Below, piece after piece: positions 4,405 to 60,044 of a DNA stretch of 64,000 nt (position 1 is the first letter of the stretch; each line of letters starts with the position of its first letter). Position numbers and translations under genes: made by a program. The notes beneath the pieces were generated by a model. That model ran no database searches. It worked only from the letters and a program-made list of their open reading frames with translations, and was not told the origin of the DNA. Source of the stretch: Flavobacteriales bacterium (GTDB lineage Bacteria; Bacteroidota; Bacteroidia; Flavobacteriales_F; PHOS-HE28); the NCBI GenBank assembly GCA_019638115.1, contig JAHBUK010000001.1, positions 512,238-576,237 of the forward strand. Reading direction: 5' to 3'.

Positions 4405-5448
4405 ATGAACGCGTCCGACATCATCTTCTACACCACACCGCAGGGCGAGGTCCGCATCGAGGTCTACTTCGAGGAGGAGACCTTCTGGCTGAGCCAGAAG
4501 AAGATGGCCGAGCTCTTCGATGTGGAGGTGAACACGATCAATTACCACCTGAAGGAGATCTATAAAACCGCTGAGCTTCAGGAGGTGGCAACTATTCGAA
4601 AAATTCGAATAGTTCAACTGGAGGGAGGTCGCGAAGTAGCTCGGGACGTTGAGCACTACAATCTGGACGCGATCATAGCGGTGGGCTACCGGGTGAACAG
4701 CGCCCGCTCCACCAAGTTCCGGATCTGGGCCACGAACACGCTGAAGGAGTTCATCATCAAAGGTTTTGTGATGGACGATGCTCGCCTGAAGCAAGGCAAG
4801 CAATTCGGGCAGGACTACTTCGAGGAACTGCTGGAGCGCATCCGCGAGATCCGTGCGAGCGAACGGCGCTTCTATGAGAAGATCACGGACATTTACAAGG
4901 AGTGCAGTCGCGACTACGATGCCAACGATGAGGTAACGCGGCTGTTCTACAAGACGGTGCAGAACAAGTTGCATTGGGCCATTCACCACCATACCGCCGC
5001 TGAGCTGATCGCTGAACGCGCCAAGGCCGAGCTACCGCATATGGGGTTGACGACCTGGAAACATGCACCTGGAGGTAAAGTGCTGAAGAGCGATGTGACG
5101 GTGGCAAAAAACTACCTGAACGCCGAGGAGGTGACCGAGCTGGACCGCATCGTGAGCATGTATCTGGACTACGCCGAGAACCAAGCCAAACGCGGCATTA
5201 CGATGTACATGAAGGATTGGGCAGGTAAGCTGGATGCCTTCCTGCAATTCAACGATTACAATGTGCTGAAGGACGCCGGAAAGGTGAGCCATGATGTGGC
5301 TGTGAAACTGGCCGAGGGCGAGTACGAAAAGTTCCGCGTGCGTCAGGACCGAGATTACATCAGCGATTTCAACAAGGAGGTGAAGCGGCTGGAAGGTGGA
5401 AAAGCCCATCCGGACAAGAACAAGCGGGCTTCGGGTACGAAGAAGTAG
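4405..5448 (+). CDS. RhuM-family (virulence-protein RhuM-like) protein
   Basis: The block YNLDAIIAVGYRVNSARSTKFRIWATNTLKEFIIKGFVMDDARLKQG is diagnostic of the RhuM family. I placed the start at MNASDIIFY rather than the upstream Met at 4366. Confidence 0.85.
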   Translation: MNASDIIFYTTPQGEVRIEVYFEEETFWLSQKKMAELFDVEVNTINYHLKEIYKTAELQEVATIRKIRIVQLEGGREVARDVEHYNLDAIIAVGYRVNSARSTKFRIWATNTLKEFIIKGFVMDDARLKQGKQFGQDYFEELLERIREIRASERRFYEKITDIYKECSRDYDANDEVTRLFYKTVQNKLHWAIHHHTAAELIAERAKAELPHMGLTTWKHAPGGKVLKSDVTVAKNYLNAEEVTELDRIVSMYLDYAENQAKRGITMYMKDWAGKLDAFLQFNDYNVLKDAGKVSHDVAVKLAEGEYEKFRVRQDRDYISDFNKEVKRLEGGKAHPDKNKRASGTKK

Positions 5449-5548
5449 GCACCGGCATCCCAGAGCCTGGATCACTATATGGTGAGAATGGTCATTGGAC
5501 CTGACCTACGGCGCAGGGGGTGTAGTGGAGCACCCGGAACTTTACCGC

Positions 5549-6532
5549 ATGTCCACCCTCCCTTCCCACATGCGCGCCTGGACCCACCGCCGCTACGGAC
5601 CACCGGACGTGCTGCGGCTGGAGGAACTGCCCGTGCCCACGCCTGGCCCCACCGACATCTTGGTGCGCGTGCATGCCACCACGGTGAACCGCACCGACTG
5701 CGGCTTCCGCTCGGCGGAGTACGTGGTGAGCCGCTTGTTCAGCGGGCTGCTGAAGCCGAAGCGGCCGGTGCTGGGCTGCGAGTTCGCGGGCGAGGTGGTG
5801 GCCGTGGGTACGCAGGTGAAGCGCTTCAAGGTGGGCGACAAGGTTTTCGGCTACGACGACCAGCGCTTCGGTGCGTATGCGGAGTACATGGTGACCGCGG
5901 CCGATGGTGGCGTGGCGCTGCTGCCCAAGGGCTGGAGCTACACCGATGCCGCAGCACTCACCGAAGGCATCCACTACGCGTGGTGCGACCTGAAGGCTGC
6001 GCGCATCGGCACTGGGAGCCGGGTGCTGGTTTACGGTGCCACCGGAGCGATCGGATCGGGTGCGGTGCAACTGGCCGTGTCGCTGGGTGCGGAGGTGACC
6101 GCCGTTTGTACCACTCCGCATGTGGATCGCATCAAGGCACTCGGCGCACACAAGGTGATCGACCGCAACAACACCGACTTCCGCAAGGAGCCAGGGCCCT
6201 TCGAGCTGGTGTTCGATGCGGTGGGCAAGAGCCGCTTCAAGCACTGCAAGCACCTGCTCACACGCGATGGCTGCTACATCAGCACCGAACTGGGGCCGCG
6301 CGGAGAGAACGTGTTCCTCGGACTGATCGGTGGTTGGCGCAAAGGACCGCGTGTGCGCTTCCCGCTGCCCACCATCAGCCAGGCGGATGTGGAACAATTC
6401 CGAAGCATGGCCGAGGCTGGCACCCTGCGACCATTGATCGACCGCGTGGTAGGTTTCGATGAGTTGGTGGAGGCGACACGCTACGTGGAGACCGGACAGA
6501 AGATCGGGAACGTGGTGGTGCAGGTGTGCTGA
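5549..6532 (+). CDS. Medium-chain dehydrogenase/reductase family NAD(P)-dependent oxidoreductase (zinc-type alcohol dehydrogenase / quinone oxidoreductase-like)
   Basis: Has a GroES-like N-terminus and a Rossmann motif VLVYGATGAIGSGAVQLAVSLGAEV. The family is assigned from the overall pattern. The start at MSTLPSHMRAW is chosen over the upstream in-frame Met. Confidence 0.75.
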   Translation: MSTLPSHMRAWTHRRYGPPDVLRLEELPVPTPGPTDILVRVHATTVNRTDCGFRSAEYVVSRLFSGLLKPKRPVLGCEFAGEVVAVGTQVKRFKVGDKVFGYDDQRFGAYAEYMVTAADGGVALLPKGWSYTDAAALTEGIHYAWCDLKAARIGTGSRVLVYGATGAIGSGAVQLAVSLGAEVTAVCTTPHVDRIKALGAHKVIDRNNTDFRKEPGPFELVFDAVGKSRFKHCKHLLTRDGCYISTELGPRGENVFLGLIGGWRKGPRVRFPLPTISQADVEQFRSMAEAGTLRPLIDRVVGFDELVEATRYVETGQKIGNVVVQVC

Positions 6533-6583
6533 ACGCTGGAGGCATTCTGCGCGTTCCTTGACCACGGTCCTACCTTAGCCACC

Positions 6584-7348
6584 ATGCCCCAACCCGTCCG
6601 CAGTACACAACCCATCGACCTCCGCTTCCTCGCTGGCCCCCGTTCCCGTTGGAAGGAATTCCTGAGCGTGGTACACATCGCTCGTGAGTTCATCTACGGC
6701 TTCCGCAAGCTGCACTTCGTGGGGCCTTGTGTCACCTTCTTCGGCAGTGCGCGCTTTACGGAAGACCACCCCTACTACAAGGCGGCGCAGGAATTGGCCG
6801 GGCGTGTTGGTCGCGTGGGCTTCACCATCATGACCGGCGGTGGGCCGGGCATCATGGAAGCTGCCAACCGTGGAGCGCGTGATGTTGGCGCACGTAGCGT
6901 GGGCTGCAACATCGTGCTGCCCATGGAGCAGTATGCCAATCCGTACCTGGACGTGAGCCTCACCTTCGACCGCTTCTACGTGCGCAAGGTGCTGCTGCTG
7001 AAGTACAGCGTGGCCTTCGTTGTGATGCCCGGCGGCGCTGGCACGGTGGATGAGCTCTTCGAGACCGTGACGCTGATACAGACCGGCAAGGTGAAGAACT
7101 TCCCCATCCTGCTCTATGGCAAGGACTACTGGGCACCGATGCTGCAACAGATAGACCGCATGGTGGCCGAAGGGACCATAGGCCGCAAGGAGTTGGAGTT
7201 CGTCTTTGTGGCGGACAGCGTGGAAGAGGCCACCACCCTGTTGCAGGATCGTTTGGTGGCCATGTGGCAGGAAGCACACAAGCGGTCCGATGCTCCACGC
7301 TGGTGGTTCCTGGAGGATCGCGTTAACGGAACGATAAGATCCCGTTAA
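6584..7348 (+). CDS. LOG family protein (TIGR00730 Rossmann-fold; cytokinin riboside 5'-monophosphate phosphoribohydrolase-like)
   Basis: Carries the motifs GGGPGIMEAANRGA and PGGAGTVDELFE. Confidence 0.8.
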   Translation: MPQPVRSTQPIDLRFLAGPRSRWKEFLSVVHIAREFIYGFRKLHFVGPCVTFFGSARFTEDHPYYKAAQELAGRVGRVGFTIMTGGGPGIMEAANRGARDVGARSVGCNIVLPMEQYANPYLDVSLTFDRFYVRKVLLLKYSVAFVVMPGGAGTVDELFETVTLIQTGKVKNFPILLYGKDYWAPMLQQIDRMVAEGTIGRKELEFVFVADSVEEATTLLQDRLVAMWQEAHKRSDAPRWWFLEDRVNGTIRSR

Positions 7349-7444
7349 CCTGGGCAACCTTGGGTTAACGTGGGATCAAAGCCACCGTAACTCTGCCAAG
7401 GGACCTTTGCGGCGCGAAAGACCACCCAGGTCGTCGCGCACACA

Positions 7445-10276
7445 ATGAACCGGATCCTCGGCTCCCTGCTCTTTTCCATCCTTGCTCTTGGCACCTTCGC
7501 ACAGAAGGGTACCATAAGCGGTACGATAACCGGCCTCGAAGGCGGCAAGGTGCAACCCATGCCTTTCGTGAACGTGGCCTTGAAAGGCTCCTCCACCGGG
7601 GCCACAACCGACCTGGATGGCCGCTTCAGTTTCACCGCCGAGCCCGGGAGCTACACCCTATTGGTGAGTTTCGTGGGTTTCGAACCGGTGGAGCGTGCAG
7701 TGAGCGTGGTGGCCGGGCAGACCGCTCGGGTGGATATCGAACTGAAAGGACAGGCCGTGGAAATGAAAGCGGTGGAGGTGGTGACCACGCGCCGCACGGA
7801 TACCGAGTCCGCCGTGATCATGGAGACCCGCCAAAGCATGCAGGTGGTGAACGCCATCAGCAGCGAGGTCATTTCCAAGGGGCAGGACAGCGATGCGAGC
7901 GAGGTCATGAAGCGGGTGCCGGGTATCACCCTCTTCGGCAACAACTATGTAATGATCCGCGGCTTGAGCGAACGCTACAGCAATGTGCAATTGCACGATG
8001 TTTCGGCACCCAGCATGGAGCCTGATGTACGTTCCTTCGCCTTCGATATCATCCCCGCCGGTTTGATCGACCGCTTGGTGGTGTACAAAAGCCCTGCGGC
8101 CGAACTCCCCGGCGAATTCAGCGGCGGTGTGGTGAAGGTCTACACCAAGAGCATCCCCAACACCAGCTTCTTCAGTGCCAGCGTGAACACCACTTTCCGC
8201 GATGGTTCATCCATGCGCGATTTCAACCAACCCAAGCGCTCATTCCTGCACAGCCTGGGTTTGAATGACGGCTACAACGACCTGCCCGATGGGTTTCCCA
8301 CGGATGTGCGCCGCGTAAGCAACGGCAATGATCTGGGTGCCATCGATGAGGTGGGGCGTTCACTGCGCAACAACTGGTTGCCGGAGCAGGTCAACTCAAT
8401 GCTGGACCGCAGCGTGTCCATCACCAACGCTTCCAAATTCACCCTTTGGGGCAAAGAGGCAGGCAACATCACCTCCATCAATTACAGCAATGCCCGCGAG
8501 ATCTTCGATGTGAAGCGTGCCGACTACAACGCTTATGACCAGATCAACAACCGCAGCTTCCCGCTCTACGAGTTCAACGACCAGCAGTTCAACCAGCGGA
8601 TCCGTACGGGCATCATCAGCAACTTCGCATTGCGCACGGGTCGCAACAGCACCATTGAGTTCAAGAACCTCTTCACGGTGTTCAACATGACCCAGTACGT
8701 GAACCGTACGGGCATCGACTACGACTTCCAATACGTTCCGGACAACCACTCGTTCGATCAAGTTTATCGGGGCATCTACAGCGGCCAACTGACCGGCACG
8801 CACTACTGGAACGATGAGCGCACCAAACTGACCTGGACCGGCGGCTACGGTTGGAGCTACCGCGACCAACCCGACTACCGCCGTTACCGCAGCAACGTGG
8901 ATACCCTTACGGGCGAAAGCACCCTGTTCGTTGGTGTGCCCCTTTCGCCCAACTACCTCGGCCGCTTCTACAGTGAGATGCGCGAGAACAGCCAAAGCGT
9001 GAACGTGGCCCTGGAGCACCAGTTGAGCGAAGCGCACAACTTCGCACCCAAGCTGCGCACCGGGCTTTACGTGGAGAACCGGGGACGCACCTTCAGCGCC
9101 CGGAACATCGGCTACGTGCGATCCAACTTCCTGCTCTTTGATGAAGGTTTGATCGAAGCTTCCATCGACTCGCTCTTCCACCCGGCCAACATCAACCAGA
9201 CCACCGGCATCCGCATTGGCGAGCAGAGCAACCCCAGCGACAGTTACACGGCCAGCAACCTGTTGATGGCCTACTACGTGGGTGCCGACCTGCCCTTGAT
9301 CAAAGACAAGTTGATGATGAACACCGGCGTGCGTGCCGAGTACAACATGCAGCGCTTGGAGAGCGCCACTTTGGTGGGCGACCCCGTGATCGTGGACAAT
9401 CCGATCCTGAGCATTCTGCCCAGTGCGAACTTCGCCTACACCATCAACCCCAAGCAGCAGCTTCGCCTGAGCTATGGCCGCACGGTGAACCGTCCTGAGT
9501 TCCGCGAGCTGGCACCCTTCGGCTTCTACGACTTCAACTACAACCTGGTGAAGAAGGGTAGCGACAGCCTCAGAACCCCGACCATAGACAACTACGACCT
9601 GCGTTGGGAATATTACCCGAGCACCAGTGAGATGATCTCCGTGGCCTTCTTCCACAAGGAGTTCAAGGACCCCATTGAAACGCTCTTCGTTCCCGGCGGT
9701 GGATCGGGAGGCATCAAGACCTTCACCTTCGGCAACGCGCGCTTCGCCCGTAGCACGGGGGTGGAAGTGGAGCTTCGCAAGTCGCTCTTGAACATGACCA
9801 CCAACCCGGTGCTGCAGCGCTTCAGCATGCTCTTCAACGCATCGTTGATAGACAGTGAAGTGGACCTTGGCAATGAGCGTTTGGGGCAGAGCAACCAACG
9901 CCCGCTCCAAGGCCAGAGCCCATACATCGTGAATGCGGGCGTCTATTACCAGGATACCGACCGTGGGCTTCAGTTCAGTCTGCTCTACAACGTCATCGGG
10001 CGTCGCATCTTCATCATCGGCTTCGATGCCTACCCGGATATCTATGAGATGCCACGCAACATGCTGGACGCCACCGCGAACATCCGCATTACCAAGCAGT
10101 TCGACCTGAAGCTCGGTGTAGGCGATGTGTTCAACCAAGCCAATGTGTTGCTGCAGGACGCCAACAAGGATGGCGTGTTCGATCGCGTCAACGACCAGAT
10201 CATCCAGAGCTTCCGTCCGGGTCGCACCTACATGGCAGGTCTGAGCTACCGCTTGAACAGGGCGGCCAAGGAGTGA
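7445..10276 (+). CDS. TonB-dependent outer-membrane receptor with an N-terminal carboxypeptidase-regulatory-like domain
   Basis: Signal peptide MNRILGSLLFSILALGTFAQ. The segment GTISGTITGL…VNVALKGSSTGATTDLDGRFSF is a CarbopepD_reg-like fold. A plug region follows (VPGITLFGNNYVMIRGLSERYSNVQLHDV). It has a 943-aa beta-barrel length and the C-terminal AGLSYRLN. Confidence 0.85.
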   Translation: MNRILGSLLFSILALGTFAQKGTISGTITGLEGGKVQPMPFVNVALKGSSTGATTDLDGRFSFTAEPGSYTLLVSFVGFEPVERAVSVVAGQTARVDIELKGQAVEMKAVEVVTTRRTDTESAVIMETRQSMQVVNAISSEVISKGQDSDASEVMKRVPGITLFGNNYVMIRGLSERYSNVQLHDVSAPSMEPDVRSFAFDIIPAGLIDRLVVYKSPAAELPGEFSGGVVKVYTKSIPNTSFFSASVNTTFRDGSSMRDFNQPKRSFLHSLGLNDGYNDLPDGFPTDVRRVSNGNDLGAIDEVGRSLRNNWLPEQVNSMLDRSVSITNASKFTLWGKEAGNITSINYSNAREIFDVKRADYNAYDQINNRSFPLYEFNDQQFNQRIRTGIISNFALRTGRNSTIEFKNLFTVFNMTQYVNRTGIDYDFQYVPDNHSFDQVYRGIYSGQLTGTHYWNDERTKLTWTGGYGWSYRDQPDYRRYRSNVDTLTGESTLFVGVPLSPNYLGRFYSEMRENSQSVNVALEHQLSEAHNFAPKLRTGLYVENRGRTFSARNIGYVRSNFLLFDEGLIEASIDSLFHPANINQTTGIRIGEQSNPSDSYTASNLLMAYYVGADLPLIKDKLMMNTGVRAEYNMQRLESATLVGDPVIVDNPILSILPSANFAYTINPKQQLRLSYGRTVNRPEFRELAPFGFYDFNYNLVKKGSDSLRTPTIDNYDLRWEYYPSTSEMISVAFFHKEFKDPIETLFVPGGGSGGIKTFTFGNARFARSTGVEVELRKSLLNMTTNPVLQRFSMLFNASLIDSEVDLGNERLGQSNQRPLQGQSPYIVNAGVYYQDTDRGLQFSLLYNVIGRRIFIIGFDAYPDIYEMPRNMLDATANIRITKQFDLKLGVGDVFNQANVLLQDANKDGVFDRVNDQIIQSFRPGRTYMAGLSYRLNRAAKE

Positions 10277-10305
10277 TCCCCGAGAGCTCCGTGGTCATTG
10301 CATTG

Positions 10306-10338
10306 AAGAAGCCGCCTTATAGAACAGGCGGCTTCTTC
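10306..10338 (+). terminator. Rho-independent terminator hairpin after the TonB-dependent receptor gene
   Basis: GAAGAAGCCGCC-ttatagaacag-GCGGCTTCTTC followed by a T-rich run. Confidence 0.55.
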
Positions 10339-10517
10339 GTTTACTCCGCCACGCTTCGGCGTAGTTCCGCATCCGCCATGTTAAGCCAGGCTCGTCACAA
10401 TTAACGTGCACCTAAGAAAAGGTTGCGCTATTCATCACACAGGCGTAAAACCAAGGTAGCACCGGAGGAAGTGCTTTGCAGCGCAAACCGAAGCAACCCA
10501 AACAAGTTCGAAGCACC

Positions 10518-11963: not shown

Positions 11964-11982
11964 GCTTGAACACGAACTTTGA

Positions 11983-12011
11983 AGCCAAGGAGAGCACAAT
12001 GCTCTCCTTGG
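11983..12011 (+). terminator. Terminator hairpin after the lipoprotein gene
   Basis: GCCAAGGAGAGCA-caat-GCTCTCCTTGGC followed by TTCTTGATTTCC. Confidence 0.5.
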
Positions 12012-12028
12012 CTTCTTGATTTCCGAAC

Positions 12029-21318: not shown

Positions 21319-21544
21319 ACAACGCTGCGAGATTGAACCGCAGGACCATGGGCGAGCTGCTGTTGCAAGTGCTTGGGCCAGGGATCACTAGGCGTGTCCG
21401 GGGCGGTCCATAACGGTCGCTTGCACCGCATAGCGGGCCGCAATACGAAGCAGATCGATCATTGGGGCACCCAACACGCTGTCCCGCACCTCTTCACAGG
21501 GCCATGCAGCAGTAGTCCCCGACGAGACCTGATCATTGCTGAAA

Positions 21545-21579
21545 GCAGAACGCCGGACCATGTGGTCCGGCGTTCTGCT
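21545..21579. terminator. Perfect 35-nt palindrome, probably a bidirectional terminator between convergent rodA and ppiD
   Basis: AGCAGAACGCCGGACCA-TG-TGGTCCGGCGTTCTGCT. Confidence 0.6.
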
Positions 21580-25367: not shown

Positions 25368-25946
25368 TCAGTCCTTGGAGGTTGCCAAGGTATCATCCGT
25401 TGACAGGCTGAAGGAGCCTTTGGGCCTGCGGATGGTGTACCAGCTCATGTCTTCGGCAGCCAACAAGCCTTCACCGATGATGACATCATCCTTGCGCTGC
25501 ACACGCACAGGGCGGTCGGTGTATACCCGGGCACTGTCCTGGTCCCACACCAGGTGCTCGGTTTCCAAGCGCTCCCCTTTCGCATTGATGAACACCACGT
25601 TCTCGCTCACTTCCATCCGCTTATCCTTGGGTACGATGACACCGCGGCGGGCCGTGAGCACACTGGTCACCTGTGCGACGGTATCCAGGAATTGCAGTTC
25701 CAGGCCCTCGCTCAGCTCAGTGCGGGGGTCGGCGCTCCACTCGGCCACTTTGGTTGCCGTTAGCCTGTTGCGCACATGGCCACTCTCGGAAAAGTCGTAG
25801 ACCGCGTTAGTGGTCAAACGGTCCGGTGCGGAGCGCGGCACCTCCACCGCCGCGACCTTGTCCAGATCGTTCCGGCAGGAAAGCAGCATACCCGCCCCCA
25901 ATAGGGCGGGTATGCTCCAGGTGATCCACGGCCGAAGCCCTTTCAT
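25368..25946 (-). CDS. Membrane-anchored periplasmic beta-rich protein, possibly LptC-like
   Basis: 192 aa with an N-terminal signal/anchor MKGLRPWITWSIPALLGAGMLLSC. The size, topology and position upstream of the CNNM and ppiD genes fit LptC-like proteins of Bacteroidota. The LptC call is tentative. Confidence 0.35.
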   Translation of the reverse strand: MKGLRPWITWSIPALLGAGMLLSCRNDLDKVAAVEVPRSAPDRLTTNAVYDFSESGHVRNRLTATKVAEWSADPRTELSEGLELQFLDTVAQVTSVLTARRGVIVPKDKRMEVSENVVFINAKGERLETEHLVWDQDSARVYTDRPVRVQRKDDVIIGEGLLAAEDMSWYTIRRPKGSFSLSTDDTLATSKD

Positions 25947-39213: not shown

Positions 39214-39290
39214 TGGCGAGCGGTGTGATGAGTGGCGAGTACCGCATGCTGGTACTCGCCACTCATCACACACCGCTCATCACTCGCATT
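39214..39290. repeat. REP-like hairpin element with a GAGTGGCGAGT core, 3' of the dipeptidase gene (same family as 16705-16794)
   Basis: GGCGAGCGGTGTGATGAGTGGCGAGTACC-gcatgc-TGGTACTCGCCACTCATCACACACCGCTCATCACTCGCC. Confidence 0.6.
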
Positions 39291-48000: not shown

Positions 48001-48075
48001 CGCACCGGCAGCGTCGACCCTCCGGGTCGACATACCGGTGCGTAAGAGGCTGGCAGGTCGACCCAATGGGTCGAC
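48001..48075. repeat. Two GTCGACCC-N-GGGTCGAC palindromic hairpins (the first nested in a CGCACCGG…CCGGTGCG outer stem), between the ACAD-SCP2 and SCP2 genes
   Basis: 48013-48031 GTCGACCCTCCGGGTCGAC and 48057-48075 GTCGACCCAATGGGTCGAC. Same GACCC-N-GGGTC family as the array at 54076-55156. Confidence 0.65.
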
Positions 48076-49672: not shown

Positions 49673-49815
49673 TGTTCTGGGGTAAGGGAGGTGAAGGAGG
49701 TGAGGGTGGTGAAGGAGGAGGGCTCTCGTGATGGGGAAGCACCTGTTCCCTCAATCACCATTCTCGCTTTCTCTCCATTTGTTGTTCGCGTTGTGCTTGG
49801 TCGTTCGTAACGGTT

Positions 49816-50604: not shown

Positions 50605-52034
50605 AGGCGTGCGATGCGCTTGGCCCATTGCATGAGCGTGCTGTTATAGGGCGGGAATATCATGCTGAGCGTACCCCAGCTGCGTTTCAGCACACCGCGT
50701 TCGTTGCTGAACTCCACGAAGCCGTGGCGGCCGTTGCTCTTGCCGATGCCGCTGTTGTTCACGCCACCGAAAGGCAGCAAGGGATTCGATGCGGTGACCA
50801 TCACATCGTTGATCGCGGTACCGCCCGCAGTGGTGTTGTGCAGCAGGAACTCGGTGTTGCGGCGGCTGTTGCTCATGATGTAGAGCGCGAGGGGGCGTTC
50901 CAGCCGGGCGATCAGCGCGGGTACTTCCTTCAGGTCGGTGAAGGTGATCACGGGCAGCACCGGCCCGAAGATCTCCTCGCGCATGATGGCCATGTCGGCC
51001 GTGACATCGATGAGCACGTGCGGGGCGATGAACTTCTCGTCCTCCACCAGCTCGCCGCCAATGGCCACGCGAGCGCCCTTGGCCACGGCATCGTCGATCA
51101 GGCCTTTCACCCGCTGGAAGTTGCGCGTGTTGATGATGCGGCCGTACTCCTGCGAGGCGCGCACACCCTTGCCCTGCGTGTCGTACATGCGCTCCACGCG
51201 CTCCGCGAAGGCCTTCAGGAAGGGTTCCAGGCGGCTTTGGTGGATGAGCAGGTAATCCGGCGCGATGCAGGTCTGGCCCGCGTTCACGCACTTGCCCCAG
51301 GTGATCTTCTCGGCGGCCTTGGCGGCATCGCAGGTGTCGTCCACGATCACGGGCGACTTGCCGCCCAGCTCCAACGTGACGCTGGTGAGGTGCTCGGAAG
51401 CGGCCTTCATCACCACCTTGCCCACGGCCGGACTGCCCGTGAAGAAGATGTGGTGCCAGGGCTTGGCCAGCAGCGCGGTGGTGGTGGGCACATCGCCTTC
51501 CACCACGGCCACTTCGCGCTCCTCGAAGAGCTCGCCGATCATCTTCTTGAGGAAGGCGGAGGTGTGCGCAGCCACTTCGGAAGGCTTCAGCAGCACCACG
51601 TTGCCTGCGGCGATCGCGTGGATGAGCGGGTTGATGGCCAGTTGCAGCGGATAGTTCCACGGCGCGATCACCAGCACGTGGCCCTTGGGTTCGTGGCGCA
51701 CGAAGGCCTTCAGACCGGCCATGGCCAGCGGCACGCCGGTGGGACGGTCCTTCACCCAGTCGTGCAGCTCGTCGTAGATGTGCTTCATGCACGCGAGCAC
51801 GGGCAGCAGCTCGGTGGCGATGGCCTCTTCGCGGCACTTGTGCAGGTCGTGCCACAGCGCTTCGGTCCACTCCTGCTGGTGCTTCTCGTCCAGCAGGTAG
51901 CGCTCGACCTTGCGGATGCGGGCGATCCGCTCCTTCTCGCTGGTGCCCTTCGCCAGTTGCAGGTTGGCATCGGTGTGCTGCAGCGCGAAGAGCCGTTCGG
52001 CCTCGGCGATGTTGTGGAATCGGTCGTTGCTCAT
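50601..52034 (-). CDS. Aldehyde dehydrogenase (class-3 / fatty-aldehyde-dehydrogenase-like)
   Basis: ELGGKSP (catalytic Glu region) and GQTCIAPDY (catalytic Cys). The start at MSNDRF overlaps the upstream stop. Confidence 0.85.
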   Translation of the reverse strand: MSNDRFHNIAEAERLFALQHTDANLQLAKGTSEKERIARIRKVERYLLDEKHQQEWTEALWHDLHKCREEAIATELLPVLACMKHIYDELHDWVKDRPTGVPLAMAGLKAFVRHEPKGHVLVIAPWNYPLQLAINPLIHAIAAGNVVLLKPSEVAAHTSAFLKKMIGELFEEREVAVVEGDVPTTTALLAKPWHHIFFTGSPAVGKVVMKAASEHLTSVTLELGGKSPVIVDDTCDAAKAAEKITWGKCVNAGQTCIAPDYLLIHQSRLEPFLKAFAERVERMYDTQGKGVRASQEYGRIINTRNFQRVKGLIDDAVAKGARVAIGGELVEDEKFIAPHVLIDVTADMAIMREEIFGPVLPVITFTDLKEVPALIARLERPLALYIMSNSRRNTEFLLHNTTAGGTAINDVMVTASNPLLPFGGVNNSGIGKSNGRHGFVEFSNERGVLKRSWGTLSMIFPPYNSTLMQWAKRIARL

Positions 52035-53725
52035 GGCTGCTCCCAGATCACGGTTGAAGGTTCTTCGTGCCAACGCAGGTAGTGGTCCGCATAGCGCGCA
52101 TCGATGCGTTCGCGGCGCACCTTCAGCGTGGGCGTGAGCAGTTGGTTGTCCTCGCTCCAGACTTCTTGCGTTATGACAATGGTCGACACGCGCTCGTGGT
52201 TCGCGCAGCCGGTGTTGACCTTGTTCAAGTGTTCGTTCAATTCGATCAGCATGATACCGCGCTCGGCCTTCAGGGCATCGGCGTTCAGGTTGACCAGTGC
52301 GATCGGCTGCGGACAGGTCATGCCCACCAGGCACACCTGCTCGATGTGCGGACAGGTGGACAAGCGCTCCTCGATGGGGTTGGGCACGATGAACTGGCCC
52401 TTGGCGGTCTTGAACGCGTCGTTGATCCGGCCGGTGAGGTACAGGTAGCCCTTGTCGTCCATGTGGCCCTTGTCGCCGCTGTGGATCCAGCCATCGGGCA
52501 GCACCTGGGCCGTCATCTCCGGCTCCTTGTAGTAGCCCATAATGGCGTGCGGCGTTTTCATGAGGATCTCGCCGTTGCTGGGGTCAATGCGCACTTCGCA
52601 GAAGGGCACCACACGGCCCACGCTGTTCTCCGGCGTATCCGGATCCACGCCGTTGCTGATGGAACCGCAGGCCTCGGTCATGCCGTAGCTCTCGATCAGG
52701 TGGATGCCCAGCTTGCGGAAGAAGCGCTTGATGTGCTTTGGCGTGATCGCCGCGCCGGTGGCCACGGTGCGCACATCACGCATGCCGAGGCCCGTGCGGA
52801 TCTTGTTGCGCACGATGCCACCGATCACAGGCAGCGACAGCAGCAGGTTCAGCCGCTTCTCCGGCATCCGCGCCAGCACGCCCTGGTGGAACTTGGTCCA
52901 GATGCGCGGCACCGCGAAGAGCATGGTGGGCTGCGTGTCCTGCAAGTTGTAGATGAAGGTGTCGATGCTTTCGCCGAAGGAGATGGTGCCGCCGGATGCG
53001 AGGCAGCTGACCTCCACGCCAATGCGTTCGCCCACGTGGTTCAGCGGCAGGAAGCTGAAGTACTTCTGGTGCGGCACTTTGAAGATGCCGATGAAGTTGG
53101 TGAGCTTCTCCCCGCGGATGATCAGCGCTGGCGTGCGGTAGCGATGCATCACGCCTTTCGGGCTGCCCGTGGTGCCGCTGGTGAAGAGGATGGTCCAGAG
53201 CTCGTCCAGCCCGGGTTTGTGGATGTCCTGCACCGGTTCATGCGCGGCGAGGAGCATATCCCAGTCGTGGCCGATGTCCACCTGTGCATTGCCCGGGTAG
53301 TGCGGGAAGCGGATGCAGGTGACGCCCTCAGGGATCACCTCGGATTTGTCCCCCCACTGCTCCAGCTTGCCGATGAAGAGCGCCTTCACATCGCTACGGC
53401 GCAGCAGGTCGGCAAGCGAAGCCTTGGGGGTGCTGGCGTAGAAGGGCACCGATACGTGCCCGCCCATCATGATCGCGAGGTCGGCGAGGATCCAGTGATG
53501 GCAGTTCTTGGAGAGGATGCCGATGTGGTCGCCCTTCCGCAGCCCCAGTGCGCGCAGGGCACCCACCATGCGTCGTGCGATTGTGCCCGCTTCCGCGTAG
53601 GTCCACGTACGCCATTCGCGGCCATAGGGTTGGCGCAGGAACACCGCGTCGGGCGTGATGCGCTCCCAGTGGAGGAAGTCGTCCAGCGGGGTGCGGAGGT
53701 CCTGGTATAGGGCGTCGGTGTTCAC
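52031..53725 (-). CDS. AMP-dependent acyl-CoA synthetase/ligase (long-chain fatty-acid-CoA-ligase-like)
   Basis: AMP-binding motif ILFTSGTTGSPKGV and a C-terminal lid. The true start is uncertain (a GTG at 53725 avoids overlap with the 53754-54029 ORF; the annotated Met is at 53806). Confidence 0.8.
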   Translation of the reverse strand: MNTDALYQDLRTPLDDFLHWERITPDAVFLRQPYGREWRTWTYAEAGTIARRMVGALRALGLRKGDHIGILSKNCHHWILADLAIMMGGHVSVPFYASTPKASLADLLRRSDVKALFIGKLEQWGDKSEVIPEGVTCIRFPHYPGNAQVDIGHDWDMLLAAHEPVQDIHKPGLDELWTILFTSGTTGSPKGVMHRYRTPALIIRGEKLTNFIGIFKVPHQKYFSFLPLNHVGERIGVEVSCLASGGTISFGESIDTFIYNLQDTQPTMLFAVPRIWTKFHQGVLARMPEKRLNLLLSLPVIGGIVRNKIRTGLGMRDVRTVATGAAITPKHIKRFFRKLGIHLIESYGMTEACGSISNGVDPDTPENSVGRVVPFCEVRIDPSNGEILMKTPHAIMGYYKEPEMTAQVLPDGWIHSGDKGHMDDKGYLYLTGRINDAFKTAKGQFIVPNPIEERLSTCPHIEQVCLVGMTCPQPIALVNLNADALKAERGIMLIELNEHLNKVNTGCANHERVSTIVITQEVWSEDNQLLTPTLKVRRERIDARYADHYLRWHEEPSTVIWEQP

Positions 53726-53753
53726 GAGAGTGCAACCAATGGATGAATGCGCT

Positions 53754-54029
53754 TCATTCTTTCGATGCGATGTACTCGGATAGGTGCAACTCCACTCCTG
53801 CCTCAAGCAGTTGCTTCATCATATCGAGCGTGATAACAGCACCACCACCGCTGGCATCCTCTCGGACCATGAAGCCGATATCCGCGACGTAGGGCCCATT
53901 TGTAAGTGAAGAGCTATTGGCCTTCAACCACTGCTCCAATTGGAACACTTGTGAAGCTAGGTCCCAGGTCTCAACATCGAGTCCTGGAATAGGGCTCCTG
54001 TCTTCCGCTCGGTATAGGTAGATGGGCAT
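53754..54029 (-). CDS. Small hypothetical protein (91 aa) at the edge of a lower-GC islet
   Basis: ~50% GC against ~62% in the flanks; no recognisable motif. Confidence 0.35.
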   Translation of the reverse strand: MPIYLYRAEDRSPIPGLDVETWDLASQVFQLEQWLKANSSSLTNGPYVADIGFMVREDASGGGAVITLDMMKQLLEAGVELHLSEYIASKE

Positions 54030-54075
54030 TGCAGTTGCTTGTCTTTAGGCCTTGTTACTCGGTACGAGATGCTCT

Positions 54076-54412
54076 ATGACCCCGCTGGGGTCATGAACAA
54101 CGCGGTGGCGAACGGGGCTATGCTCTGCGACCCCTCCGGGGTCGGATCCCACGCCGGGGCGATCCGGACTAATATCTGTGACCCCTCCGGGGTCATGCGC
54201 ATCATCACAGTGCTCCCTTGAACTGCTCTGATCAACGACCCTGACAGGGTCAACCGTGCCACCAGCTTCTTTCGGACAAATATCCGTGACGCTTAAGGGG
54301 TCATGCGGATCCATATAGTACCACCTACCATGGCTCGCATCATCGACCCTGAAAGGGTCGCAGACATTGGCAACGAAACGCCACGCAGGAAGCCCGACCC
54401 CGGAGGGGTCGC
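54076..54412. repeat. Array of seven GACCC(C)-N3-5-(G)GGGTC palindromic (REP-like) repeats
   Basis: 54076-54094 ATGACCCCGCTGGGGTCAT; 54128-54144 CGACCCCTCCGGGGTCG; 54179-54195 TGACCCCTCCGGGGTCA; 54237-54251 GACCCTGACAGGGTC; 54287-54304 TGACGCTTAAGGGGTCA (imperfect); 54345-54361 CGACCCTGAAAGGGTCG; 54396-54412 CGACCCCGGAGGGGTCG. Confidence 0.75.
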
Positions 54413-54453
54413 AGAGCAAAGAAGCTGACTCCGAACTCAAATGCAGACTCATG

Positions 54454-55017
54454 TCAATCAGCAATTCTTTGAAGCTCAACGGCGGCGTTACCCTGTCTCA
54501 AACGAATTCCATCGGTGCCGACCCACTCAACCTCGACGGTCGTTTGTCTCGGATCGATCGCATCAAGTATCGTCAGATCGTCTCGACGATAGTTGTACTC
54601 CGTCAGGATAAGGGAGCCCAATGGATCCATGAAATAGTCGTAGACGTTGCTCCCGTGCTCACTGAAATAGACCTGGAAAGGATGCTCGTACACCAACTTG
54701 CCCCAACCACTCATGGTAGCCTTGGCACTGTCCCCAACTACAATTCGTCGCCCTGGCTGGAGGACCGCTCCATGAATGATCATCTTACCATCCTGCACCA
54801 ACCAAACACCTGTCAATCGGCTCATGGCACCAAGATCAAAGAGCGATGTATCGTAGGTCATTCGAAACTCACGGCTCTTATGATCCTTCGAGACCAGAAC
54901 GGAATCTGGAAGGTTCGTCAAGGCTTCCCAAACCTTCTCACCAAGTTCAGCTTCCTGTCTTTCATTAGATGCACCGCATCCCTGAAGAAGCACTAGCGCT
55001 ATGAGTGCGTAGGTCAA
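54454..55017 (-). CDS. Hypothetical lipoprotein (~188 aa) in the low-GC islet, flanked by palindromic repeats on both sides
   Basis: Lipobox (R)LTYALIALVLLQGCGAS. The best start is a TTG at 55015-55017; the longer ORF to 55575 is just read-through across repeats and the ACAD 3' end. ~50% GC. Confidence 0.5.
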   Translation of the reverse strand: MTYALIALVLLQGCGASNERQEAELGEKVWEALTNLPDSVLVSKDHKSREFRMTYDTSLFDLGAMSRLTGVWLVQDGKMIIHGAVLQPGRRIVVGDSAKATMSGWGKLVYEHPFQVYFSEHGSNVYDYFMDPLGSLILTEYNYRRDDLTILDAIDPRQTTVEVEWVGTDGIRLRQGNAAVELQRIAD

Positions 55018-55091
55018 ACGAACCTTGAGCAGATCCGAATACCTGGCCCATTTCGAACTAAGATGTGCGCCATGTACAGTGTTCGAGCGAA

Positions 55092-55156
55092 CGACCCCAT
55101 GGGGGTCGCAGAGCTTAGAAACGTCACGAACAGGCATTTCGACCCCGGAGGGGTCG
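55092..55156. repeat. Two further GACCCC-N-GGGGTC palindromes upstream of the islet lipoprotein
   Basis: 55092-55108 CGACCCCATGGGGGTCG and 55140-55156 CGACCCCGGAGGGGTCG; both are followed by GCAGA. Confidence 0.75.
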
Positions 55157-55184
55157 CAGAACACCACTATGCGCTCTCCCGTTC

Positions 55185-56972
55185 TCACAGCTCGTATCCG
55201 TTGCGTGCGATGAAATGCGCGGCGATCGTGCGGCGCGTCTCCTTCAGGTCGTGCGGGGGCAGGCCGAGGAGGCGTGTGAGGGCCTTCACGGTCATGGCGG
55301 CCATGTCGCCCTGGGCACTGGCGTACACCACCTCGCGGGAGCAGCGGCGCAGCACCTCGGCGCTGTCGTGCATCAGCACGAGCACCATGGCGGCGGTGAT
55401 CGGCGCGGAGGGCTTGTCGCCGTGCTTGATGGCCCGCAGCAGCGCGCTCTCGAAGAGGTAGACCTGCGTGAGCATGTCCGCCAGTTCCATCAGCACTTCC
55501 TGTTCGTCCTTGATCGCCTCCTGGAAACGCTGCATGGCCTGCCCGGCGGCGAGGATGGTGACGGTCTTCGCGCACTGCAGGAAGGCGCGCTCCAGCCCGA
55601 AGGCCTCGCCGTTGTCGGTGGCGGGGTTCAGCTTGCCGCCTTGCAGGTCCTGGAACGCCTGCATGGCGGCGGGCATCAGGGCCACCTCGCCCTTCATGGC
55701 CTTGCGCAGCAGCGTGGTGGGCATCAGCAGGCGGTTGATCTCGTTGGTGCCCTCGTAGATGCGGTTGCCGCGGATGTTGCGGTACAGCGTGCTCACCTCG
55801 CTCTCAGCGCTGTAGCCCATGCCGCCGTGGATCTGCAGCGCTTCGTCCACCACAAGCTGCTCCATCTCGGAACCGTACACCTTGGTCATGGCGCACTCCA
55901 GCGCGAACTCGGCCACGCTGCGCTGTTTGGCCTCCAGCTCCGGCATGCCACCGGCGAGCATGTGCTCCAGCGCCTGATCCACCTGGTGGGCCGCACGGTT
56001 CCATGCGCTGTCGTTGGCGTAGATGCGCACGGCCATGTTGGCGATCTTCCGCTGGATGGCACCGAACGCGGCGATGGGTTTGCCGAACTGCACACGCTGG
56101 TTGGCATAGCGCACACCCAGTCCGAAGGCGCGCTTGGCGATGGCGCTGTTGGCCACTGCGATCTTGATGCGCCCGGCGTTCAGCGCGTTCATGGCGATCT
56201 TGAAGCCTTTGTCGCGCTCCCCGAGCAGGTTCTCCACGGGCACCTTCACATCCTCGAAGAAGACCTGCCGCGTGCTGCTGCCGTGGATGCCCAGCTTACG
56301 CTCCTCGGCGCCGAGCTTCACGCCGTACTCCTTGTGGACGATGAGGCACGAGAGGTTCTGGTCGTCCCCGATCTTGCAGAAGACGAAGAACACATCGGCG
56401 AAGCCCGAGTTGGTGATCCACATCTTCTGGCCGTTGAGCACGTAGTGGCTGCCATCGGCGCTAAGGACAGCGCGGGTGCGGGCGGCGTTGGCATCGCTGC
56501 CGCTGCCGGGTTCGGTAAGGCAGTAGCTGCACTTGATCTTCGCCGCGATGATGTCAGGCAGGTACTTCGCCTGCTGCTCGGGCGTGCCGTAGTAGAGCAC
56601 GGGATAGATGCCCAGGCCGGTGTGTACGCCGATGCTCTGCGCGAAGGCGAAGCTGTCCGAGGCGATCTCCCCGAAGGCCAGCTCGGTCTTGAAGTCGGCG
56701 CCGAGACCGCCGTACGCTTCGGGTACGCCGATGCCGTGGAAGCCCAGTTCGCCCATCTGTTCCAGCAGGCCCGGCGCGATGGTGGTGCCCTCCACGGTAT
56801 CGAACTTCTCCTTGATCGGCTCCACCTCCTTGTCGAGGAAGTCGCGCATGCTCTTGCGGAACATCAGCTGCTCCTCGGTGTAGTCTTCGGGAGTGAAGAT
56901 GTCCGCCGCGTCGCTGTCCTTGATGAGGAACTCGCCGCCTTTGACGGGGGATGTGGTTTGGGTGGTCGTCAT
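55185..56972 (-). CDS. Acyl-CoA dehydrogenase (long, ~595 aa, FadE-like with a C-terminal extension)
   Basis: CLTEPGSGSD, the catalytic region YEGTNEI and a ~200-aa C-terminal helical domain. Confidence 0.85.
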   Translation of the reverse strand: MTTTQTTSPVKGGEFLIKDSDAADIFTPEDYTEEQLMFRKSMRDFLDKEVEPIKEKFDTVEGTTIAPGLLEQMGELGFHGIGVPEAYGGLGADFKTELAFGEIASDSFAFAQSIGVHTGLGIYPVLYYGTPEQQAKYLPDIIAAKIKCSYCLTEPGSGSDANAARTRAVLSADGSHYVLNGQKMWITNSGFADVFFVFCKIGDDQNLSCLIVHKEYGVKLGAEERKLGIHGSSTRQVFFEDVKVPVENLLGERDKGFKIAMNALNAGRIKIAVANSAIAKRAFGLGVRYANQRVQFGKPIAAFGAIQRKIANMAVRIYANDSAWNRAAHQVDQALEHMLAGGMPELEAKQRSVAEFALECAMTKVYGSEMEQLVVDEALQIHGGMGYSAESEVSTLYRNIRGNRIYEGTNEINRLLMPTTLLRKAMKGEVALMPAAMQAFQDLQGGKLNPATDNGEAFGLERAFLQCAKTVTILAAGQAMQRFQEAIKDEQEVLMELADMLTQVYLFESALLRAIKHGDKPSAPITAAMVLVLMHDSAEVLRRCSREVVYASAQGDMAAMTVKALTRLLGLPPHDLKETRRTIAAHFIARNGYEL

Positions 56973-57249
56973 GGGAATTCGGTCGTTCCTGGGGTGAAGA
57001 AGGTGAAGGAAGTAAGGGAGGCGGGCGTAGTGCTTTCATTACCTCCCTCACCTCCCTTTCCATCCTCACCATGCGGGACGTTCATGCTTGGAAGATCGAA
57101 CCTTCCTTGAGTGAAGAATGGCAAGCGGCTGCGAGATGAGGGCATTTTACCTCCCTTGCCTCCCTCGCCTCCTTTACCTCCTTTACCTCCTTTACCAATG
57201 GACCCGCTCAGCCCATCGATCAACCGTTCGCTCATGGTAGGAAGTTTCA

Positions 57250-58962: not shown

Positions 58963-59225
58963 TGGGATGGTTTCGTTGGGTGGTGACGGTCTCGTTAGTG
59001 GGTAGTAATGTGAAGATGTGAATATGAGAGGATGTGGCCTCGGCAGGACAGGACAAGGTTGGAATGTCCCAACTCATGGTGGGCACTACTGCACTTCAAT
59101 GCGATGGCTGGCTTACACTTCATCTCTTCTCTGCATTCACTCATTTCCACATCCTCTCATTCCCTCATTTCCACATCTCCTCTTCCCCCATTTCCACATC
59201 TCCACATTCTCTCATTTCCACATTC

Positions 59226-60044
59226 TCACTCCCCCGTCCACTTCGGAGCGCGCTTCTCGCGGAAGGCAGAGAGGCCCTCCATACCGTCCTTGGTGCCCAC
59301 GGTCTTCTGGAGCATCTGCAGCAGGTAGGCGTGTTGGGCTTCGGCGGGACGGATATGGTCGAAGGCTTCCAGGCCCATGCGGATGGCGGTGGGCGAGTTG
59401 GCCAGCAGTTCATCGAGGAGGCCCTGCACGGTGCCGTCGAGTTCGTCGCGCTTCACGCAGTGCGTCACCAGGCCCAGTTCCTGCGCGCGTTCCACGGGCA
59501 GATCGTAGCCGCGGATGCACCAGTCGATCACGGTGCGGGGCGGCATCACGTTCAGCAGGGCGGCCATCACCTGGTAGGGGAAAAGGCCACGCTTCACTTC
59601 GGGCAATCCGAAGCGCAGGCCCTCGGCGGCCACCACGTAGGTGCTACCCGCCAGGAAGAGGAACCCGCCCGCGAACACGTCACCGCCCACCTTGGCGATC
59701 ACCGGCTTGTACACCTTGTTGAAGAGCTCGCCGATGAGCACTTCGCCGTTGGGCGCAGGGATGGTGGAAGTGAAGTCCTTGTCTCCGCCCATGAAGGCTT
59801 TCAGATCTGCACCCGCGCAGAACACATCGCCCTTGGCCTCAAGCACCACGGCCCACACGCTCTTCTCGTACTTGGCATAGCTCATCGCGAAGGCCAGCTC
59901 GTTCACCATGTGCGGGTGAAGGGCGTTCTTCTTTTCGGCCCTGTTCAGGCGGATGGTGAGCACCTGCCCGCTCTGCTGCACCTCCAGGAAGGCGTAGGTC
60001 TCGGAGAGGGCGTTGGTGAGTTGGTCGGGGGAGTAGAGGGACAT
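59226..60044 (-). CDS. Enoyl-CoA hydratase/isomerase family protein (methylglutaconyl-CoA-hydratase-like)
   Basis: Crotonase fold (FCAGADLKAF, GGDVFAGGFLFLAGSTY). Confidence 0.8.
   Translation of the reverse strand: MSLYSPDQLTNALSETYAFLEVQQSGQVLTIRLNRAEKKNALHPHMVNELAFAMSYAKYEKSVWAVVLEAKGDVFCAGADLKAFMGGDKDFTSTIPAPNGEVLIGELFNKVYKPVIAKVGGDVFAGGFLFLAGSTYVVAAEGLRFGLPEVKRGLFPYQVMAALLNVMPPRTVIDWCIRGYDLPVERAQELGLVTHCVKRDELDGTVQGLLDELLANSPTAIRMGLEAFDHIRPAEAQHAYLLQMLQKTVGTKDGMEGLSAFREKRAPKWTGE

Follow-up and report, generated by a model that had tools for sequence, protein, structure and literature searches.

A 64-kb stretch of the genome of a Flavobacteriales bacterium (the window) carries a β-oxidation operon in which the gene for an acyl-CoA dehydrogenase (ACAD) and that for an AMP-binding acyl-CoA ligase are separated by a 1.43-kb islet (53754-55184). 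All genes of the region lie on the minus strand. The islet contains nine hairpins of the form GACCC(C/T)-N3-(G/A)GGGTC, a gene for a lipoprotein of 187 residues and a small open reading frame (ORF) of 91 codons (ORF91; Table 1). Seven hairpins lie downstream of the lipoprotein gene in the sense of the mRNA and two upstream, just as a first-pass annotation of the bare sequence had placed them together with the lipobox and ORF91. The same annotation put the GC content at about 50% in the islet and about 62% around it, and measurement bears out the lower GC of the islet (0.538 versus 0.632-0.636 in the flanks). Codon usage of the islet genes is foreign to the host operon as well: the GC content at third codon positions (GC3) is 0.54 in the lipoprotein gene and 0.59 in ORF91, compared with 0.88-0.91 in the neighbouring genes.

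Each hairpin unit consists of a 7-bp stem, (C/T)GACCC(C/T), a 3-nt loop and, on one side, the foot GCAGA; on the other strand the unit therefore reads 5'-TCTGC-hairpin. Copy 1 differs in having a stem of 8 bp. The GCAGA tail, already remarked on in the first-pass annotation, is exact at five copies and degenerate at three (ACAGA, ATAGA and ACGGA). Because this tail is one-sided, each palindrome has an orientation: copies 1, 2, 3 and 5 point one way, copies 6-9 point the opposite way and copy 4 is footless. The start-to-start distances are 51, 51, 57, 51, 57 and 51 nt among the seven downstream copies and 48 nt between the two upstream copies. Folded individually as DNA, single copies reach -7 to -8.6 kcal/mol, and the decayed copy 5 no longer folds (-1 kcal/mol). 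All nine copies are intergenic with respect to the ORFs that are supported as genes.

The pattern GACCCN{2,8}GGGTC matches ten times in the window, where 0.78 matches are expected and 100 shuffles gave four at most; eight of the ten matches fall in 54078-55155. A covariance model built from 14 copies, taken from the window and from a related locus (L003), recovered the decayed ninth copy of the islet, GACGCTTAAGGGGTC (54288-54302), at 27.5 bits. Over the 64 kb this model finds the nine islet copies alone (all nine within 1.4 kb, the remaining 62.6 kb having none), so that the clustering proposed in the first-pass annotation stands, and is extreme, within the window. A search with it of 1.1 Mb from 85 other Bacteroidota loci gave no match to an islet-type hairpin. 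Among the 14 copies the basal and the apical stem pair alternate between C-G and T-A, with both partners changing in concert (in four and three copies, respectively), and one-sided changes at these two pairs number zero. Two further stem positions have one unpaired cell each, in the decayed copy 5.

A symmetric binding site for a protein would likewise be expected to show compensatory changes, and perfect palindromes of 15-17 bp in a catabolic operon could be operators for a dimeric transcription factor that controls fatty-acid degradation. We regard this explanation as very improbable. Seven tandem copies stand downstream of a gene and not at a promoter, and the foot is one-sided. The element is moreover absent from the orthologous operon of a close relative (L004) and recurs around transposase genes and among unrelated genes on contigs with a GC content of 37-72%.

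A second repeat family, akin to the islet hairpins but distinct from them and shared by the window and L004, occupies other spacers. Two of these host-type hairpins, GTCGACCC-N3-GGGTCGAC, stand in another spacer of the same gene cluster and score 9-11 bits with the islet covariance model. Hairpins of this type are often preceded by CACCTGTACC and are found in several spacers of the β-oxidation gene cluster, with their position conserved between the window and L004.

Table 1. Positions of the islet hairpins, the surrounding genes and the host-type hairpins. Coordinates refer to the window unless another locus is named; bit scores are those of the islet covariance model.
Feature	Position	Strand	Description	Score (bits)
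ACAD gene	56972..55185	minus	595 aa; Pfam Acyl-CoA_dh_N, _M, _1	
Hairpin copy 9	55140..55160	plus	CGACCCCGGAGGGGTCG + CAGA foot; between ACAD stop codon and lipoprotein gene	36.0
Hairpin copy 8	55092..55112	plus	CGACCCCATGGGGGTCG + CAGA foot	35.8
Lipoprotein gene	55017..54454	minus	187 aa; TTG start; lipobox LLQGC	
ORF135	54452..54045	minus	135 aa; reads seven downstream hairpins as DPxGV; judged spurious	
Hairpin copy 7	54395..54415	plus	CGACCCCGGAGGGGTCG + CAGA; inverted copy of copy 2	37.1
Hairpin copy 6	54344..54364	plus	CGACCCTGAAAGGGTCG + CAGA; apical stem pair C-G to T-A	
Hairpin copy 5	54282..54303	minus	TGACGCTTAAGGGGTCA; decayed; foot ACGGA on minus strand	27.5
Hairpin copy 4	54236..54251		CGACCCTGACAGGGTC; footless, orientation undefined; within 108-nt tandem duplication D2	20.8
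Hairpin copy 3	54174..54195	minus	TGACCCCTCCGGGGTCA; minus-strand foot ACAGA, then TATTAGTCCGGATCGCCCC	41.3
Hairpin copy 2	54123..54144	minus	TCTGC-GACCCCTCCGGGGTC-G	39.2
Hairpin copy 1	54069..54094	minus	ATGACCCCGCTGGGGTCAT; 8-bp stem; foot ATAGAG on minus strand	35.5
ORF91	54029..53754	minus	91 aa; small orphan gene; GC3 0.59	
Spacer ahead of ligase start codon	53726..53753	minus	contains CCATTGGTTGC	
AMP-binding acyl-CoA ligase gene	53725..52031	minus	GTG start at 53725	
Two host-type hairpins	48013..48075 (48013-48031, 48057-48075)		GTCGACCC-N3-GGGTCGAC; another spacer of the same gene cluster	9-11
Host-type hairpins of L004	6008-6026, 6919-6937, 14380-14398, 14427-14445 (L004)			

Descent of the islet and growth of the array

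The ACAD protein of the window is 91% identical to those of two Flavobacteriales metagenome-assembled genomes (MAGs), represented by the contigs L004 and L005, and its next relatives come from other Bacteroidota. Absence of the insert from relatives, which the first-pass annotation had put forward as a check, was found in L004, where the ACAD-ligase spacer measures about 75 nt and holds one different hairpin, GCGACCCAATGGGTTGC, but two other loci are occupied at the same site. In L003 the islet consists of two hairpins, a lipoprotein gene (66% identical) and three hairpins, and in L214 of three hairpins, the lipoprotein gene and three hairpins; ORF91 is missing from both. L214 is the second contig of the MAG that includes L005 (JTS-RE253), whose assembly is interrupted a short way upstream of the array, within the 3' part of the ACAD gene (end of L005 at 8614, start of L214), so that the islet is split across the two contigs.

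Between the window and L003, third codon positions differ at 42% in the ACAD gene, 38% in the ligase gene and 40% in the lipoprotein gene. The lipoprotein gene is thus as diverged as the genes flanking it, which indicates that the islet has diverged together with the operon. Judged by this divergence, the islet appears to be old in its place and not recently mobile. The window, L003 and L004 are related in a mosaic fashion, in that the ACAD segment and the ligase segment disagree, and gain and loss of the islet therefore cannot be polarised. Deletion of the islet from L004 by recombination between REP copies was considered and is not supported, since the L004 hairpin resembles a remnant beside the ligase start of the window and not an islet hairpin. 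This remnant, CCATTGGTTGC, resembles the 3' half of GCGACCCAATGGGTTGC when the two are compared by eye, and homology between them is proposed only tentatively.

The same comparisons bear on the suggestion, made in the first-pass annotation, that the islet is a small mobile cassette or a cluster of miniature inverted-repeat transposable elements (MITEs) that moves as a unit, with the lipoprotein gene and ORF91 as cargo between repetitive extragenic palindromic (REP) or MITE ends. Such a cassette would account for the foreign codon usage of both cargo genes and for the presence of two unrelated orphan genes in one spacer. It would also suit the outermost copies, which face each other in inverted orientation, and the absence of the islet from L004, a MAG assembled across the junction. 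We nevertheless find it unlikely, and this part of the earlier description is not supported. The third-position divergence of the lipoprotein gene argues for vertical descent at a site that is occupied in three lineages, and no second copy of the islet is known. ORF91 is missing in two of these lineages, and its homologues reside in another operon (L208-L212); neither they nor a distant homologue of the lipoprotein gene on L213 have GACCC hairpins beside them. The window contains no transposase gene, and the feet of the upstream copies point away from the lipoprotein gene, unlike the arrangement around transposase genes in other genomes. Finally, the copy-number differences among lineages have a local explanation.

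That explanation is found in the duplications of which the array is composed. Copies 1 and 2 form a 51-nt tandem duplication, and copies 3+4 and 5+6 a tandem duplication of 108 nt (D2). Copy 7 pairs with copy 2 as an inverted duplication (28-nt arms, 96% complementary), as does copy 6 with copy 3. Folded as RNA, the 421-nt array reaches -202.7 kcal/mol (z = -7.4). The numbers of copies upstream and downstream of the lipoprotein gene are 2 + 7 in the window, 2 + 3 in L003 and 3 + 3 in L214. A doublet, GACCCCTCYGGGGTC-36 nt-ccaatgtctgcGACCCTTTCAGGGTC, precedes the lipoprotein gene in L003 and L214 but follows it in the window, where copies 7 and 6 are its homologue. Local tandem and inverted duplication thus explains how the lineages came to differ in copy number. 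That all spacings are multiples of three follows from the same process, in which one 51-nt unit was duplicated and indels of +6 and -3 nt arose.

Spacings of 48-57 nt and inverted copies are the arrangement of bacterial interspersed mosaic elements (BIMEs) and of the related REP doublets known as REPINs, with the orientation changing in blocks and not in strict alternation. A clustered regularly interspaced short palindromic repeat (CRISPR) array was also considered and is rejected, because the repeats are variable and occur in both orientations and because the spacers are mutually homologous (71-74% identity, D2/D3) and kept between lineages. The preference of the first-pass annotation for hairpin-forming, REP/BIME-like elements over CRISPR repeats is therefore upheld by these properties and by the compensatory changes at two stem positions.

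In the three downstream copies that are orthologous, the proportion of differing sites is 5-14% for hairpin plus foot and 22-36% for the spacers; the hairpins are 2-4 times better conserved than the spacers across the three related lineages. Third codon positions of the neighbouring genes differ at about 40%. Since the divergence of hairpin and foot lies below that of both the spacers and the third codon positions, the elements are conserved beyond the neutral level. A flank of copy 3, TATTAGTCCGGATCGCCCC, is also kept in L003 and L214.

Conservation above that of spacers and silent sites would be expected if the hairpins had arisen in the operon and been kept there as RNA or DNA structures (stabilisers, processing sites or attenuators), their likeness to a transposase-linked element being a matter of convergence. 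The host-type hairpins in other spacers of the gene cluster, in the window as in L004, and the lack of a nearby transposase gene agree with such an origin. There is little probability in it, however, because the identity with unrelated contigs spans the 5-nt foot and the ATTAG-CCGG-AT linker context (see below), the islet model scores only weakly on the host-type hairpins and no hairpin is followed by a U-tract.

The element in other genomes

A 21-nt element identical to that of the islet, matched by the exact pattern CGACCCCNNNGGGGTCGCAGA, is present on at least 120 metagenome contigs of 37-72% GC, a number that, the matches having been chosen by exact pattern, is not comparable with a computed chance expectation. 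Viral contigs contributed four single matches, none of them informative. Of 131 copies among the matches listed, 93 have CC(N)GG at a distance of 14-34 nt on the upstream side, and in many of these it forms the 3' half of ...TGAGCGCAGCGACACCCCCGG. On several contigs the hairpin is followed by CAGA-n-ATTAG and a second hairpin, which gives a module of the order hairpin A, CAGA-n-ATTAG, hairpin B (CCGGTGGT...ACCACCGG), a linker of about 20 nt and hairpin A again; in L094, for example, CCCCCGGATCGCCC is followed by CGACCCC 11 nt later. The window spacer ACAGATATTAGTCCGGATCGCCCC-N-CGACCCC matches this canonical order, A-CAGA-ATTAG-CCGG...CCGG-AT-linker-A. The array of the window has a far larger counterpart on a metagenome contig of 41% GC (L197), where 25 GACCCC(T)-N3-(A)GGGTC hairpins, spaced at 52/103 nt, form tandem arrays at 5083-7640.

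In several organisms the element accompanies genes for transposases of the HUH/Y1 type. On L175 (4785-5228) it brackets an ORF of 148 residues that belongs to the Y1_Tnp family (PF01797, E = 1e-18) and scores just under the NCBIfam cut-off for IS200 (54.6 versus 55 bits). A GCAGA-footed hairpin stands 46 nt upstream of the ATG of a homologous transposase gene on L139 (3567-4007) and L193 (6478-6918) and about 32 nt from such a gene on L104; L158 and L167 have partial copies. Loci that were chosen by protein similarity only led to the same association: the gene is flanked by inverted GACCCC hairpins on L218/L219 (Thermoguttaceae; 10001-10447) and by variant hairpins with a ATTAGCCGGTGGT module on L216/L217 (Verrucomicrobiae). 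The 148-residue family comprises at least 4416 proteins at E <= 1e-20, which are often named 'REP element-mobilizing transposase RayT' by the Joint Genome Institute (JGI). The names of its top 120 members point to Verrucomicrobiae, Sumerlaeota, Thermoguttaceae and Gemmataceae, yet these proteins are 76-97% identical. These findings lend weight to the REP-like reading of the first-pass annotation, which had also proposed a search for a REP-associated tyrosine transposase (RAYT); genes of the Y1/RayT type are found beside the element in other organisms and none is found in the window.

Among known systems, those closest to the element include the REP/BIME and REPIN systems with RAYTs, as in Escherichia coli and Pseudomonas. 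In both cases the units are short, GC-rich extragenic hairpins with a one-sided foot of 4-5 nt, which occur in both orientations, in clustered arrays and as inverted doublets in operon spacers, and inverted copies of either kind flank a single small HUH/Y1 transposase gene (for the window type, in other genomes). The window element differs from REPs in that its stem has only 7 bp and in that, within the window, it is confined to one islet instead of being dispersed. The associated enzyme carries the Y-x3-Q-x2-HH signature of the IS200-like subclass 1.2 and not that of class 2 RAYTs. The L175 protein has the motifs DHVH, WQ and YIADQEEHH in 148 residues, and TnpA-Y1 proteins of subclass 1.2 have DH[IV]H, WQ and YIKNQKEHH with a mean length of 148 residues (Quentin et al., 2018; PMC6006769). 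In the same survey, subclass 1.2 comes mostly from Cyanobacteria and Bacteroidetes, and the REPtron-like hairpins of class 3 are given as CAGAGCCGCGACCGTCAGGGAGCG with the foot CnGA (Quentin et al., 2018). The class 3 hairpins differ in sequence from the GACCCC element.

A further resemblance concerns Acido-Lenti-1, an RNA motif that is reported near retroelements and integrases and, to our knowledge, not near Y1 transposases. The L175 module matches the Rfam model of this motif (RF01687; Weinberg et al., 2010; PMC2864571) on the opposite strand with 32 bits (E = 5e-5), which is below the gathering score of 37 bits; the match takes in a hairpin, a CUAAU linker and a short UUCG-type hairpin. 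In the window, CCGGACTAATATCTGT-GACCCCTCCGGGGTC presents linker and 3' hairpin in the Acido-Lenti-1 order, but the window copies are without the 5' hairpin of the motif and have no Rfam match at E <= 1.

On this evidence we consider it probable that the islet holds a BIME-like array of REP-type hairpins, locally duplicated and partly decayed, in an old foreign islet of the β-oxidation operon. The hairpin belongs to a known kind of repeat, of which it represents a new sequence family, and is not a proven RAYT-dependent REP. Several points weigh against this interpretation. The foot of the window element is (T)CTGC, compared with GT[AG]G in canonical REPs, although the architecture of a foot beside a hairpin is the same. 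The 148-residue transposase fits subclass 1.2, which is listed without REPs, and the GACCCC element is absent from the REP tables of the same survey (Quentin et al., 2018; PMC6006769); it is likewise not listed in the text of Di Nocera et al. (2013). The number of metagenome matches is subject to the limit given above, and the taxonomic breadth of the element is gauged from a GC range and a few organism names. A tblastn search with the Y1 protein found no such gene in the 64-kb window, so that the cognate enzyme of this organism is putative. Within the same 64 kb the islet type is not dispersed, which would not usually be expected of an active REP family and agrees with inheritance together with the islet. 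The multiples-of-three spacings and the open frame across the array (see below) remain coincidences under this interpretation, and the effect on mRNA discussed at the end is entirely inferred, by analogy.

If the array is of REP type, its formation may be pictured as follows. E. coli TnpA-REP has been shown to nick and copy single-stranded hairpins, and in other bacteria the transposase associated with the GACCCC element presumably does the same. The 51-nt unit of the islet may derive from the canonical module by collapse of hairpin B into CCGG. The array would then have grown and been rearranged locally, through the 51-nt and 108-nt tandem duplications and the copying of a REP doublet in inverted orientation, and ongoing transposition is probably not how it was built. 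A more far-reaching proposal is that the GACCCC hairpin, with its CTGC foot and ATTAG/CCGG modules, is the cognate REP of the 148-residue Y1 family, whose top 120 members are named from Verrucomicrobiota, Planctomycetota and Sumerlaeota, and would thus form an undescribed cross-phylum REPtron, and that the orphan array in the window is at the same time kept by its host as an RNA or DNA element that tunes expression. In this combined form the proposal is possible but doubtful.

Open frames and genes of the islet

The array can also be read as protein. ORF135 begins with an ATG 1 nt beyond the stop codon of the lipoprotein gene, its frame is open through all seven downstream copies with every spacing a multiple of three, and it is called as a gene by a gene caller on an identical public contig (L002). 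A counterpart in L003, ORF105, overlaps the stop codon (ATGAGTGA) and the ligase start (GTGA). That ORF135 is a real gene for a protein of seven DPxGV repeats, translationally coupled to the lipoprotein gene, is nevertheless scarcely credible. Its substitutions relative to L003 are spread evenly across codon positions (10/45, 8/46, 13/47), in contrast to the third-position excess in the lipoprotein gene (28/157, 21/158, 64/158), and what is conserved in it is exactly the palindromes and not the reading frame. ORF135 and ORF105 are unrelated to each other in their N-terminal halves, L003 has an equally open antisense ORF of 136 residues across the same stretch, and a Pfam scan of ORF135 gave no match. 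ORF135 is therefore judged to be spurious and non-coding. The hairpin array thus yields a convincing-looking ORF of 135 residues, which at least one pipeline calls, and also lengthens the lipoprotein ORF upstream; recognition of the element would allow spurious DPxGV or TPEGSQ proteins to be cleared from databases.

The lipoprotein gene starts with TTG at the aligned position where its two close homologues have their ATG. Its N-terminus, MTYALIALVLLQGC, reads as a signal peptide and lipobox; Cys14 is invariant in comparison with the homologue P0001, and nearly all of 20 aligned family members have a cysteine at the lipobox position (mostly ..SC). The family is small, with 21 proteins among 1.84 billion representatives, and Pfam and NCBIfam scans assigned neither the lipoprotein nor ORF91 to a family. 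The fold is predicted to be a lipocalin-like β-barrel. Identity to bacterial lipoproteins of lipocalin-like type (E. coli Blc, lipocalin-like proteins of Bacteroides and Tannerella potempin E) is at most 15%. The predicted fold and the neighbouring genes alone suggest that the protein may bind fatty acids.

ORF91 is found at this locus in the window lineage only and is a separate addition to the islet. It has six homologues, among them the identical KF905_02535 of a Flavobacteriales MAG in NCBI and five others. Two of them, P0003 and P0004 (L208-L212), have a dihydropyrimidine-dehydrogenase-like gene on one side and a cytidine/dCMP deaminase gene on the other, the setting of a pyrimidine-catabolism cluster. 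The structure model of ORF91 has a predicted local distance difference test score (pLDDT) of 85.6 and gave weak fold matches only.

Other repeats occur elsewhere in the window. Tandem 9-nt repeats (GGAGGTGAA / TTACCTCCC) and a 24-nt repeat are found at 49681-49718, 57147-57196 and 59129-59227, that is, in the spacers that immediately precede the genes for ACAD-SCP2 and ACAD and close to 59.1 kb. In the mRNA sense they are rich in CACCTCC or AAGGAGG and resemble anti-Shine-Dalgarno or Shine-Dalgarno sequences, which is odd for a Bacteroidota genome. The SDR-ACAD spacer of L004 has a host-type hairpin in place of these repeats. Long perfect palindromes with stems of 13-21 bp, unrelated to the GACCC family, are located at 39223-39271, 21544-21579, 11981-12015 and 25885-25916; they may be terminators or other elements.

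Transcription and significance of the array

Scans of 53400-55400 found neither intrinsic terminators nor σ70 promoters, and the Bacteroidetes -7 motif TAnnTTTG has no site within or near the islet. An Rfam scan of 53000-56000 at E <= 1 returned a chance match to a small nucleolar RNA only. Since the array lies between co-oriented genes and no promoter-like or terminator-like site was found, it is probably transcribed with the operon. Its stable stem-loops would then obstruct 3' exonucleases or locally modulate the expression of the dehydrogenase, lipoprotein, ORF91 and ligase genes. REPs inside operons of E. coli exert local control of mRNA decay or expression, and the suggestion is made by analogy with them (see also bioRxiv 10.64898/2026.03.23.713779).

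The islet shows how a spacer in a core catabolic operon can collect small foreign genes and repeats that nonetheless stay in place for a long time. Its hairpins tie REP-type repeats with a foot other than GTAG in Bacteroidota to a very abundant and little-studied family of Y1 transposases. If the hairpins do affect the stability of the mRNA, they would set the relative dosage of the β-oxidation enzymes and of a possible lipid-binding lipoprotein.

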